Shown here piece after piece: positions 33,001 through 42,000 of a stretch of DNA of 45,334 bases. This DNA comes from a virus (lineage: Duplodnaviria; Heunggongvirae; Uroviricota; Caudoviricetes). Numbering within the stretch: the stretch's first letter is position 1; every line of letters begins with the position of its first letter. Location of the stretch: the IMG/VR virus record IMGVR_UViG_2877251553_000007; one strand, 5' to 3'. Made by a program: the position numbers.

Positions 33001-36000
33001 GTACAGCATGAACCCTCAGACAGAAAACAAAGTGATGAGCGGCTAAAACTGGAGATTAAGGTGGCACATATCCGCACTCGCGAAACATATGGAACCCGGC
33101 GGCTCCAGACGGAGCTGGCAGAGAATGGCATCATCGTTGGTCGTGAACCGCCCCGGGAATCCTGGAGACTAAACTTCCTGAGAAAGAGGTAAACAGGATG
33201 ACTAAAAATACTCGTTTTTCCCCCGAAGTCCGTCAACGGGCAGTCCGTATGGTTCTGGAAAGTCAGGGCGAATATGACTCACAATGGGCGACAATTTGTT
33301 CCATTGCTCCAAAGATTGGCTGTACGCCGGAGACTCTGCGTGTCTGGGTTCGCCAGCATGAGCGGGATACCGGAGGCGGTGATGGCGGGCTCACCACCGC
33401 TGAACGTCAGCGTCTGAAAGAGCTGGAACGTGAAAATCGTGAACTGCGCCGCAGTAACGATATCCTTCGCCAGGCTTCCGCTTATTTTGCGAAGGCGGAG
33501 TTCGACCGCCTCTGGAAAAAGTGATGCCACTGCTGGATAAGCTGCGTAAGCTGTACGGGGTCGGACCGGTATGCAGTGAACTACATATTGCCCCGTCAAC
33601 GTATTACCACTGTCAGCAACAGCGACATCATCCGGATAAACGCAGTGCCCGTGCGCAGCGCGATGACTGGCTGAAGAAAGAGATACTGCGCGTATACGAT
33701 GGGAATCATCAGGTATACGGTGTGCGTAAAGTCTGGCGTCAGTTGTTACGGGAAGGTATCAGAGTGGCCAGATGCACTGTGGCACGTCTCATGGCGGTTA
33801 TGGGACTTGCCGGTGTTCTCCGGGGTAAAAAGGTCCGTACGACCATCAGCCGGAAAGCCGTTGCCGCAGGCGACCGCGTAAACCGTCAGTTCGTGGCAGA
33901 ACGACCTGACCAGCTGTGGGTGGCTGATTTTACTTACGTCAGCACATGGCAGGGCTTCGTCTATGTGGCGTTCATCATTGATGTGTTTGCCGGATACATC
34001 GTGGGGTGGCGGGTCTCATCGTCCATGGAAACGACATTCGTGCTGGATGCTCTGGAGCAGGCGTTATGGGCCCGTCGACCGTCCGGCACGGTCCATCACA
34101 GTGATAAAGGTTCTCAGTATGTATCGCTGGCCTACACACAGCGGCTTAAGGAAGCCGGATTACTGGCATCAACAGGAAGTACAGGCGACTCGTATGACAA
34201 CGCGATGGCGGAGAGCATCAATGGTCTTTACAAAGCGGAGGTAATACACCGTAAGAGCTGGAAAAACCGTGCAGAAGTGGAACTGGCCACACTCACGTGG
34301 GTGGACTGGTATAACAATCGACGATTGCTGGAAAGGCTGGGCCATACTCCTCCGGCAGAAGCAGAAAAAGCTTATTATGCTTCCATCGGAAACGATGATC
34401 TGGCAGCCTGAGTTCACAGATAAAACACTCTCCAGGAAACCCGGGGCGGTTCAGTCGTGACCGACTGGCACGTCTTCGTAAGGAGCTAAGGCTACGCTGT
34501 AAGCAGAAACGCAAGTTCAGAGCGACTACGAACCCGAACCACAATCTGCCAGTTGCGCCAAATCTGCTGAACCAGACGTTCGCTCCTACAGCACCAAATC
34601 AGGTCTGGGTGGCGGACCTGACGTATGTTGCCACTCAGGAGGGATGGTTGTACCTCGCTGGCATCAAAGATGTTTATACGTGCGAAATTGTCGGCTACGC
34701 CATGGGAGAGCGCATGACAAAAGAGCTGACAGGTAAAGCCCTGTTTATGGCGCTCAGGAGCCAGCGCCCACCTGCCGGGCTAATCCACCACTCTGATCGA
34801 GGTTCACAGTACTGCGCATACGATTACCGGGTCATACAGGAGCAGTCTGGTCTGAAAACATCAATGTCGCGTAAAGGTCACTGTTACGACAACGCTCCGA
34901 TGGAAAGCTTCTGGGGAACGCTGAAAAATGAGAGCCTGAGCCACTATCGTTTTAATAACCGGGATGAAGCCATCTCAGTAATACGGGAATACATTGAGAT
35001 TTTCTACAATCGTCAGCGTCGTCACTCTCGTCTGGGGAATATCTCCCCGGCAGCCTTCAGGGAAAAGTATCATCAGATGGCTGCTTAAAAAAAGAACAAA
35101 TGGTAGTGTCCGCTATTGCCAGTACACCTCAGATTTTCTCTGCGGCCCTTTTATCAATCTGCCTGCGCCAGAAATCGCGCACTGCCCTGTACCCACCCGA
35201 AAGAAGATACAGCACACAGACCGCCGTACAGAAGTACAGCATCACCTGATGAATAAATGTCATAGTTTCTTACCGTTATGGTTGACAATGAGAACTGTTT
35301 TCATTTAAAAAACCGATATACGAAAGCATCTTTTCTTTACATTCTCCATTGGGATTACCTCCGCCAGCTTCCGTTCCTGCCGCTGGCGGCTTTTTTTATC
35401 ATGCCGCGGCATCCGCGTTGTTCACTTCCACCTTCACACTGTCAATCAGCAGCGTATATGTCGCCGCCTTTGATATGCCTGTCAGTTGCAGTTTGTCCGC
35501 CGCCCCTGATGCCGGAGATTTCACCAGTGTGAACGGCGTCCCCCGTTTCTCATCCAGTACCGGCGTCACCTGAATGCTGTTGTTTCCGGCAAACTCAAAA
35601 GCCAGTGTGTGCCATCCGTTATCAAAGACCCCGAACGTATCCAGCTTCGCATTCGGCTTCTTGTGGTACATCGCGTTCAGGTTCGTCGCATCCGTCTGCA
35701 GGAAGAAGGACATCAGCATGTCGTTGCCTTCCTCTGCCAGCGTCACTCCCTCCGGCAGGGACGACAACTGCCAGTAAATGCCCAGGGCAAACCGATTCGG
35801 CATCAGTGAACCCGGCAACTTAAACCGTACGCTCACACGTCCCCCTTCTTCAGTAACTCCACTCCCTGTCCGGCTGCATCATGCTCCAGAAACCAGATGT
35901 GGTTTTCCGGTTTATTCAGTTGCAGGGCCTTACCTCCCGTAGCCCCGCATCACTGACCACCGCTTCAGCAATGTTTTTATTAACATTGTCTCCGCTCGCC

Positions 36001-39000: not shown

Positions 39001-42000
39001 CAGAACTGCGCCAGACACTGGTCCAGCCACTTCAGGTAATCATCGTCGCCCTTCCACTGGTTATCCCAGCCCTCAGGCTTCACTTTAAAGTACGGCGGGT
39101 CCGTGACTATCAGGTCAACAGAATTTTCGGGTAACGACCGGATAAATTCCAGGCAGTCGGCGTTGATTAACTCACAACTGGATATTTTTACAGTATTAGC
39201 CATAGATCAATAAGCACTTCTCTGATAGGCTCATACCGCTTTTGCGCAAAGCAGATGGGCCTGAGGTTTGCTTGTGACCCCAACGCATGAGCAGATGGCT
39301 GGTGGGTGCCCCTAACACCCACCAGCCGCCCATTTACCACAAATAAAAAAGCCTTCACTGCGGAAGGCGTCTGTAACAACCGAACTGATAGTCTGCCAGA
39401 CCCGCCATAACCAGCTGGGTCAGTATTAACTGGCAGCGTTCGCGTGAAAGGTAAGTATTCTGCGCAATCTCCCCGACTGTCGCCGGTTCGGTGACGCTTA
39501 ATTCATTAAACACCACTCTGGCGGTTTCTGTCATATCCTGCTGTTTCAGCATGTCTTTTTCCCTTTTCCGGTTAACGTGACACACCAATAACTCTTGTCG
39601 AAAAAGCCAGCAAGCTGAAAGACAGGTATTCACCGCCACCAGCGCGTTTACTGTACTGACGCGATTTCAGTCATAAAAAACCCGCCAGGCGGCAGGTTTA
39701 AGCTGTATGACGGAGTGACCAATCTTAACATACTGACATACTTTTTGCGGACCGCACTAATCATTTTTTACTTTTTTAGCAGCCAGTCGTCCATCTCCAG
39801 TCTTACCCCCAGCACAGACAAACATCCGTCAATAAACCCTTCGGCTATCTGCATCTCAATTCGTATTGCTTTTTCGCTTTTCTTTCTCGTCCTGGCTATC
39901 TGTCTTTTTGATATTCGCAACAAATAATGAGCAATGAGAAGCGAATACTCCTCAGGTTTTTTCTGCTTCAGACGAGCAAGACAGTTTTCAATGATAAGTC
40001 CGTCATCATCGCAGCAGGCCGGACGTGGTTTAGTGGCAGATGGTAAAAGTCCTTTGAATCCGGCAGCGATCGGAGAATAGTCCACCCCGGTGTTACCACT
40101 TGCAGCCCATGCCCCCAGCGTTCAAGAACCATCTGAATATCACGCATCAACTTTCTCCACAAAATCAGGACAGCACACCAATCGCCAGCGCGCGATCGAT
40201 AAAACGAAATATCAGCTCCAGTTGGGAGCCATACTTCTCTTCAAATGCCACGGTATCCGCATGCAGTTCGTCATGGTGTTTTCTGCACAAAGGCAACACA
40301 AAAAGGTCATGCGCTTTTGTTCCCATTCCACCCTGACCGTGACCTATCAGGTGGTGGGGATCATCAGCGGGCTTTCCACAACATGCACACGGCTGTGTCT
40401 TAACCCAGCGCGTGTACTTTTCATTAACCCAGCGGCGACGTTTTGGGCGTAACATAAAAGACTCCGGCGACTCCGGATCCACTTTCAGCGCCAGCACCTT
40501 TTTCGCCTTATCCTGGATGATGCTGGTGGCAGGAACCGAAGGCACAAGGTCACTTTCCCGGGTAACAGTCGGCACAACAGGCTTCGGTAATCTCAGTGCC
40601 TTACGGGCTGCACTTTCCGGTAAGGCATCCGCCAGATCATTACGAATCAGCCACCAGCACAGTTCCGGCATTGTCACAACGTGACTGTCATCAAAACCGA
40701 GATCCCGACGCACAACAGACAACACCCAGCGGGCACAGTTATCCGTTGCCATTGATTCCAGCCGTTCCGTGAACTGATCGCGCAGCTGATTATCGCAGTG
40801 CCAGCACAGACGGATTGCACCCGGAGCGTGTCGCATTGTGGTCATGTTCTCGCTGTGCCAGTCGGAATGAGGCCACTGGCAGCCTTTTTCACGAAGTAAC
40901 CAGCTTTCAAGACATTCCACGCCACCAGCACGACGGATCACTTCCTCATTGCGGAACACGGCCCGAACGTCAGGATCATCCGCCAGCGGTTGTGATGCCG
41001 CCGGAACGGCACCACTGGCGAAAGATGAATAACGCTCCGGCTCAGGCTCCAGCAGGACACGCCCCTGCATAAACAGGGGCATCAGCTCTGAACCTGGTCT
41101 GAACAATACGATCCCCATACGCGGGCAATTTCAGGGGTCAGTAGTGCTCTCACGGTCACCTCAATGAACGGTATCGAGCAGCTTTAACAGCTCAGGGAAT
41201 CGGGATTCGAAGAAATGCGGCTGCGTCTCGCGCGGATTTGCAGGACAGGTGATGTTCTTGCCGAACATGCAGCCTTTCGCTGTCAGCGACCAGAATTTTT
41301 TGATGTTGTTAATCGCGGTACGGCTGTATCGTTCGCGCTGCTCGACGATCCCCAGCTTCACCATCTGGTGATATGCCTGATTAGCCGTAAGGCGGATACC
41401 ATACTGTTTCAGCAGTGCACTCAGCGACAGCGTGGGGCGACTTGAGCCATCAGGCGCGTCAGCAGGAGCATCAATGGCATAGCGCGGTGCCAGATTCGGT
41501 AAGCCAACAGCCTCCTGGAGTTTCTGACAGGCACCAAGCACTGAAGAGTTAAACAGGTTTAATTCCCGGCGCATAAAGTCCAGCAGAATCACACCAGCCT
41601 GCATCTTGTCAGCAGCCTGTCCGGATAATTTTTCCGGTGCGCTGGTTACCATGTCGAAAGTACGGATCACCTTCAGATGGAATGACGGGCTGATCCACAT
41701 TGCATAGGCATACACCAGTTCCTTGCAGACATACGTTCCCCGTTCATTTCCCCATGAATCATACTCACCGGGTCAACACCCAAATTCTGGGTGTTGGTCA
41801 ATTCATGAACAAGCTCAACAGTTTGTTGGCTGGAAATAAACTTTCCCGGCTCCTTGGTTCTGGCATTTGCACCAGATGCTACTGCTGCGCGATGTAGATC
41901 GTTCAGGCTGTAACGCCCATAAGCATCACGACGAACTTCAATACCATCAATGACCATCAGATTATTCATACTTCGTTTCTCCTCTTGATCAGGCGGCTGC

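Follow-up and report, generated by a model that had tools for sequence, protein, structure and literature searches.

The tRNA-to-nanS-p interval of a lambdoid prophage: a Stx-phage-type late region with an unoccupied cargo site

Gene content of the late region

The sequence analyzed here is a 45,334-nucleotide stretch (the window) of a Caudoviricetes virus record, IMG/VR IMGVR_UViG_2877251553_000007, which consists of prophage sequence from end to end. Its late regulatory region contains, in this order, the gene for the antiterminator Q, a small open reading frame (ORF), a DNA methyltransferase gene, genes for tRNA-Ile2/Met(CAU), tRNA-Arg(UCG) and tRNA-Arg(UCU), a gap of 499 bp and the sialate O-acetylesterase gene nanS-p. 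All these features lie on the minus strand, and coordinates running from high to low denote this strand below. The order from Q via the methyltransferase and the three tRNAs to nanS-p had been proposed by a first-pass annotation, which read the gap as an empty slot for the Shiga toxin (Stx) genes, and it is borne out by the ORF list, ARAGORN, Rfam, Pfam and alignments to related loci. The lysis genes, which the same annotation had added to this order, are indeed present; however, they lie outside the interval it had delimited, at ~30.7-32.1 kb and beyond a 2.6-kb block of insertion sequences (IS). The complete series of Q, methylase, ileZ/argN/argO tRNAs, nanS-p and lysis genes corresponds to the backbone of Stx phages, to which it is not specific.

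The gap extends from the last tRNA to the ATG of nanS-p (37854-37356) and, according to the ORF list, holds no toxin-sized ORF, as had been noted. The accompanying statement that it contained only a single plus-strand hairpin was incomplete, as a full-length STnc100-family small RNA (sRNA) gene and three further hairpins are also present. The sRNA gene (37781-37578) matches Rfam family RF02076 in cmscan at 119.8 bits (E 1.2e-26; gathering score 47), the match covering model positions 1-206 of 206, and a terminator hairpin was found by terminator scan at 37607-37589. As given, two of the suspected 1-base losses in homopolymers fall within the gene, which also differs by 4 bases from the closest relative. 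STnc100 was reported to follow the stx2 operon at a distance of 75 nt (PMC12370729), and PasD/STnc100 sRNAs are encoded directly upstream of a sialate esterase gene (Zhu, Shabalina and Storz, bioRxiv 10.64898/2026.05.13.724894). In all loci aligned in this study, STnc100 is likewise situated beside the esterase gene or downstream of stx: its core is conserved downstream of both stx1B and stx2B and precedes nanS-p.

The first of the four hairpins recovered in the gap by the terminator scan and folding, followed by a T-run, is located directly behind the tRNAs (37840-37817; -11.4 kcal/mol, z = -3.4). It forms the left border of the cargo site described below and is kept in empty, Stx2a and TerB loci in the junction alignment. 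The terminator-like hairpin previously placed on the plus strand at ~37546-37577 is real and comprises a G+C-rich stem (37549-37570) followed by T7 (37549-37577, plus strand; -16.9 kcal/mol, z = -3.9). It is antisense to the late operon and, because A7 precedes its stem on the late strand, looks like a terminator for the opposite direction. A third hairpin with a late-strand T-run (37480-37465; -9.1 kcal/mol, z = -2.1) is kept in all six aligned loci. The fourth structure is a long stem in the nanS-p leader, just upstream of the ribosome-binding site (37451-37397; -22.3 kcal/mol, z = -4.8), and none of 200 shuffled sequences folded as well. Its arms are conserved in Stx1, Stx2a, TerB and empty loci, with a perfect 12-bp stem in the Stx1 phage, and it could represent a regulatory element of the 5' untranslated region or part of another sRNA.

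The six loci compared for the gap interval were the window, two cargo-free loci, one locus with TerB cargo, one Stx2a phage and one Stx1 phage. Homology extends from end to end in all six, including the spacers between stxB and nanS-p of the Stx1 and Stx2 phages. In addition, the Stx1 phage exhibits compensatory changes in two hairpins, namely the sRNA terminator and the plus-strand hairpin, whose stem pairs GCCCGCG/CGCGGGC in one version and GCCCGA/TCGGGC in the other. With the sRNA, the four hairpins and the nanS-p leader as its components, the 499-bp gap represents a conserved non-coding module and not a vacated toxin locus. This spacer should be annotated as an STnc100-family sRNA gene rather than as empty DNA.

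Upstream of the gap, Q (40147-39768) is a protein of 126 amino acids which, once one base is restored, matches Pfam Phage_antitermQ (PF06530) over the full profile (E 1.4e-52, 177 bits), thereby placing a Q-family antiterminator upstream of the late genes as in lambdoid phages. In tblastn comparisons, its residues show 99-100% identity to the Q proteins of a Stx2a phage and phage PhiR5_1. The small ORF between Q and the methylase (39639-39355; 94 amino acids) has no Pfam match but shows 98.6% identity over 74 amino acids to an ORF of the Stx2a phage LC567818 that is labeled “hypothetical protein, possible pseudo,” and a terminator-like hairpin (39368-39351, terminator scan) overlaps its 3' end. 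This region would be the expected neighborhood of the late promoter and its terminator. The methyltransferase gene (39203-38154; 349 amino acids, PF01555 N6_N4_Mtase, E 3.3e-42) is intact, and its product shares 92% amino acid identity with the methylase of the Stx2a phage. The ORF list and Pfam also show the DUF968 gene to be intact.

The phage tRNA cluster of the ileZ-argN-argO type, with anticodons CAU, UCG and UCU in this order, was recovered by both ARAGORN and Rfam. The CAU tRNA (38104-38029; Rfam 72.5 bits) had been called tRNA-Ile, which agrees with the Prokaryotic Genome Annotation Pipeline (PGAP) label of the corresponding tRNA in the aligned relatives (tRNA-Ile, ileZ type), although ARAGORN gives Met. 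It is followed by tRNA-Arg(UCG) at 38022-37946 and tRNA-Arg(UCU) at 37931-37855, the latter with 53.4 bits in Rfam and with mismatched pairs flagged. Compared to four related loci (L001, L004, L006 and L007), this last tRNA shows substitutions at 37870 and 37864, which disrupt the G53-C61 pair of the T-stem and one pair of the acceptor stem, and this copy may be impaired. Weak Rfam matches to P26 and Plastid-ycf2 (antisense strand of a tRNA) scored below their gathering thresholds and were dismissed.

The cargo junction and its distribution

Comparison with the Stx2a phage LC567818 (L001) locates the point at which the toxin genes would be expected. Window positions 40300-37813 correspond to L001 1501-3990 at 93.6% identity and window positions 37813-36168 to L001 5322-6994, so that position 37813 maps to both L001 3990 and L001 5322, while stx2A and stx2B occupy L001 4040-5280. 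Relative to the window, stx2AB is therefore a clean insertion of ~1.33 kb with the post-tRNA hairpin on one side and the sRNA gene on the other. Followed base by base, homology continues through the hairpin and T-run at 37840-37817, breaks at ~37811-37816 and resumes at TCACAATTCAG (37809-37799); BLAST breakpoints and base-level alignments thus define an unoccupied cargo junction at 37811-37816. The description of the locus as an stx-negative relative of Stx phages was correct in this respect, as stx2AB is exactly the part that is missing from an otherwise similar Q-methylase-tRNA segment.

An alignment against Stx phages for remnants of stxA, stxB or their promoter, which the first-pass annotation had suggested, detected none. 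In tblastn searches of the whole window with Stx2A and Stx2B of the Stx2a phage, only chance-level matches were obtained (best E 1.3 and 0.06, respectively), and a DNA search of the whole window against the cassette region returned only the 35 bp after the tRNA, which belong to the shared backbone. Protein and sensitive DNA searches of the whole window likewise revealed no scar, no stx promoter remnant and no partial stx sequence. The pair stxA and stxB, whose location between Q and the lysis genes defines a Stx-converting phage, is thus absent from the window. An arrangement of the Stx1 type was rejected, since in the Stx1 phage YYZ-2008 Q is different and tRNAs are lacking; only the sRNA-to-nanS-p module is common to this phage and the window.

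The same point can be occupied by unrelated genes. In some other E. coli, a cassette of ~0.8 kb encoding TerB and DUF3927 is found at this position, and a yecE prophage of an enterohemorrhagic E. coli strain carries toxin-antitoxin-like and TerB-like genes between methylase and esterase. The interval between the post-tRNA hairpin and the sRNA gene is thus an optional cargo (moron) site, which holds stx2AB, TerB/DUF3927 or, as in the window, nothing.

The two cassettes resemble each other at their borders. A similar TATCYGCGCC motif opens each of them, and the return to the backbone takes place in both cases at TAAAT-N3-TCACAATTCAG, a short way upstream of the sRNA gene. The left ends of stx2AB (L001 ~3995-4006) and TerB (L006 ~850-862) carry the similar motifs ATATCTGCGCC and GTATCCGCGCC straight after the post-tRNA T-run, and the end of the TerB cassette, TTTTTAAAT, resembles the empty junction, TTTTTTTAAAT. 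Phage PhiR5_1 (L002 4400-4520), which has no methylase, tRNAs or TerB, keeps the right-end sequence of the TerB cassette upstream of its sRNA gene, which suggests a remnant of TerB cargo. One might speculate that the site is a defined exchange point, at which cargo of lambdoid late regions is swapped in a cassette-like, sequence-directed manner and not inserted at random, but this is a long shot; the shared cassette borders could equally be explained by common ancestry of the borders and replacement of the interior by homologous recombination.

The distribution of the cargo-free arrangement was determined with a junction probe of 246 bp, which was searched in 5,426 complete E. coli genomes and in phage records. 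An uninterrupted junction was present in 1,007 of these genomes, including UTI89, which is not an E. coli strain that produces Shiga toxin (STEC), and strains of serotypes O55:H7, O103:H2 and O157:H7. It was also present in 10 phage records, none of which is named as Stx-converting. Among the matches listed, the share of the probe covered by phages named as Stx-converting does not exceed 49%, and where such a phage matches at two places, it does so as two halves. Apart from the length of the T-run, the empty junction of the window is identical base for base to those of UTI89 and of the prophage of E. coli cM8a (L004), and it is found behind at least three different Q or upstream modules (those of the window, UTI89 and cM8a).

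Because the same junction recurs in so many genomes, UTI89 among them, the layout is that of a backbone general to lambdoid prophages, in which the cargo site is optionally filled. The first-pass annotation had itself named the sharing of this gene order with lambdoid phages without stx as the observation that would speak against its view, and such sharing is what the genomes and phage records reveal. A noteworthy empty stx slot is consequently not supported: the junction is widespread, unrelated TerB/DUF3927 cargo is found at the site and the gap harbors a known sRNA gene. The arrangement is ordinary and already documented, and roughly one complete E. coli genome in five carries the toxin-free form. 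A Stx phage, whether present or former, is not diagnosed by the Q-tRNA-nanS-p layout, and the significance of the locus extends little beyond its correct annotation.

Origin and functional state of the locus

Taken together, the locus is very probably the late regulatory region of an Escherichia (or Shigella) lambdoid prophage with a Stx-phage backbone in its common cargo-free state. In lambdoid phages, Q causes RNA polymerase that starts from the late promoter to resist terminators. By analogy with this established biology, Q would render transcription from a late promoter downstream of its own gene terminator-resistant, and the late transcript would run through the methylase, the three tRNAs, the post-tRNA hairpin, STnc100 and the terminators into nanS-p and the lysis genes. 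With no cargo in place, the prophage would be expected to yield no toxin upon induction. With regard to its history, a mosaic prophage that, in its present form, never had stx is favored, since no stx remnant was found, the junction is of the non-STEC type and the right flank is nearer to non-Stx prophages.

Several observations weigh against this reading, and they concern the sRNA, the reading frames and the left flank. For STnc100, the scan revealed no sigma-70 consensus promoter, and inspection by eye found only weak -35-like and extended -10-like motifs, for which no promoter is claimed. Shuffled sequences reach fold energies as good as that of the sRNA (z = 0.17); this is not counted against the covariance-model match, and expression at this locus is to be regarded as predicted only. 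As for the reading frames, if the frameshifts described in the following were real, Q would be dead and the late operon silent. Finally, the Q-methylase-tRNA flank and Q itself (99-100% amino acid identity) are, among phage records, closest to Stx2a phages, and in the Stx2a phage, the cassette is bordered by a 5-bp microhomology, ATCTG, which would be compatible with precise deletion.

The frames are indeed interrupted. Q and nanS-p had been listed as genes, yet neither reading frame is open in the sequence as given. Q contains a frameshift caused by the loss of one G in a G6 run at ~40112-40116, and tblastn accordingly places residues 1-12 in one frame and residues 12-126 in another. In nanS-p (37355-35399), five 1-base losses in C-runs divide the gene into six frame segments (tblastn), and an in-frame TAA is present in addition. 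The region shares 98.4% DNA identity with one that contains an intact copy of 653 amino acids, and, after frame repair and with Tyr taken at codon 78, the protein exhibits the complete domain set of NanS-p, consisting of an N-terminal DUF1737, the catalytic SASA domain and a C-terminal DUF6645. The TAA results from a TAC to TAA change at codon 78 (37125-37123), through which the Tyr is lost just before the GQSN catalytic motif. This stop codon is not a homopolymer error, and the esterase may be truly truncated.

To place these lesions in context, the head, early, Q and nanS-p blocks of the window were examined for indels by alignment to the cM8a prophage, which is ~96-98% identical overall. 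Of the 20 indel events, 17 are losses of one base from the window, and a gain of one base did not occur. Almost all of the losses are situated at or next to C/G runs, and they occur alike in the four blocks, for example at 22178, 23362, 25575, 28455, 35841, 35943, 36511, 36578, 37273, 40112, 41123 and 43033, breaking many phage genes such as those for the portal, the capsid, Q and nanS-p. Restoration of one base per site yields a perfect Q of 126 amino acids and a NanS-p of 653 amino acids. Since the losses are one-sided, affect C/G runs throughout and can be restored in this manner, most of the frameshifts are probably homopolymer errors of assembly or base calling. Until the homopolymer runs have been verified, no pseudogenes should be reported on the basis of these frame breaks.

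The same lesions could instead be taken as signs that the prophage is cryptic and genuinely decayed, that Q and nanS-p have become true pseudogenes and that the late region is a silent fossil. In addition to the single frameshift in Q and the five in nanS-p, three kinds of lesion that are not of the homopolymer type are in line with this view: the TAA in nanS-p, the two stem-breaking substitutions in tRNA-Arg(UCU) and an insertion of mobile elements. The latter comprises an IS600 copy with a nested IS3-family element (32554-35131, plus strand), recognized from a synteny break relative to L004 14244-14247, PGAP names and transposase domains, and its target is a small DUF1378 gene that lies between nanS-p and the gene for the holin. 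The nested pair occurs elsewhere in E. coli; at this insertion site, it was found in no complete E. coli genome of the collection searched. Another element that would fit decay, ISEc20 of the IS110 family, lies at the left end of the window (~556-2030), where it adjoins a DinI-like gene in the tail-fiber region of the prophage. Against decay, all 17 single-base indels are losses, equally present in the capsid, portal and early genes, and such a one-sided pattern is typical of base-calling error and not of natural decay; moreover, the methylase and DUF968 genes are intact. A silent fossil is therefore considered rather improbable, though it deserves to be kept in mind, and it touches the functional state only, whereas the identity of the locus is unaffected.

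A second explanation concerns the history of the cargo site, namely that the prophage is a former Stx2 phage which lost its stx2AB cassette by precise deletion and kept the backbone intact. Such a deletion would account for the 93.6% identity of the left flank to LC567818 and the 99% identity of Q, and ATCTG at both cassette borders of the Stx2a phage could have served it. However, a repeat of 5 bp that falls within a few bases carries little weight and could be due to chance, no remnant of stx or its promoter is present, and the junction is the same as that of non-STEC prophages, T-run length aside. The flank from the sRNA to nanS-p, furthermore, is 98.4% identical to a non-Stx prophage as opposed to ~75-85% to Stx2a phages, and this difference between the flank identities points to a mosaic and not to a deletion derivative of a known Stx phage. 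Precise loss is thus regarded as quite unlikely, and a mosaic without former stx remains the favored history. That stx was collapsed or dropped during assembly can be practically disregarded, as the systematic homopolymer errors of this assembly are single-base events, whereas the absence of 1.33 kb together with a junction that, T-run length aside, matches the natural empty form of the 1,007 finished genomes is unlike a mis-assembly.

Relation to known late regions

Stx2a phages, such as LC567818 (Stx2_14040) and those with a late region of the 933W type, share with the window the order DUF968, Q, small ORF, methylase, three tRNAs and post-tRNA hairpin, and further on the same STnc100, hairpins, nanS-p and lysis genes. 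They differ in that they carry stx2A and stx2B, from which the window is free, and their sRNA-to-nanS-p part is only ~75-85% identical. Prophages with TerB/DUF3927 cargo, for example that of E. coli UPEC-245U, have their flanks in common with the window, and their cargo enters at the same point, with the post-tRNA hairpin on one side and TCACAATTCAG on the other; in them, ~0.8 kb of cargo is present where the window has none.

Close counterparts are also found among lambdoid prophages without stx. UTI89 and cM8a, as well as phages Nil3, PhiR49_2 and PPwrbA_EH2201, have the same tRNA-to-sRNA junction as the window, T-run length aside. In cM8a, the sequence from the tRNAs through nanS-p is 98.4% identical in a block that includes all three tRNAs and reaches L004 17231. 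The upstream modules are different, as cM8a has a WYL/HTH module and UTI89 a larger antiterminator, both unlike the Q module of the window, and UTI89 keeps only a remnant of nanS-p. The window, in turn, carries the IS600/IS3-family insertion in addition to a layout of the UTI89/cM8a type. As to the esterase gene, nanS-p genes are already known from non-Stx prophages (PMC10462455; PMC8065619). With respect to the sRNA, the locus resembles the PasD/STnc100 prophage sRNAs in both its full-length covariance match and its position directly upstream of a sialate esterase gene.

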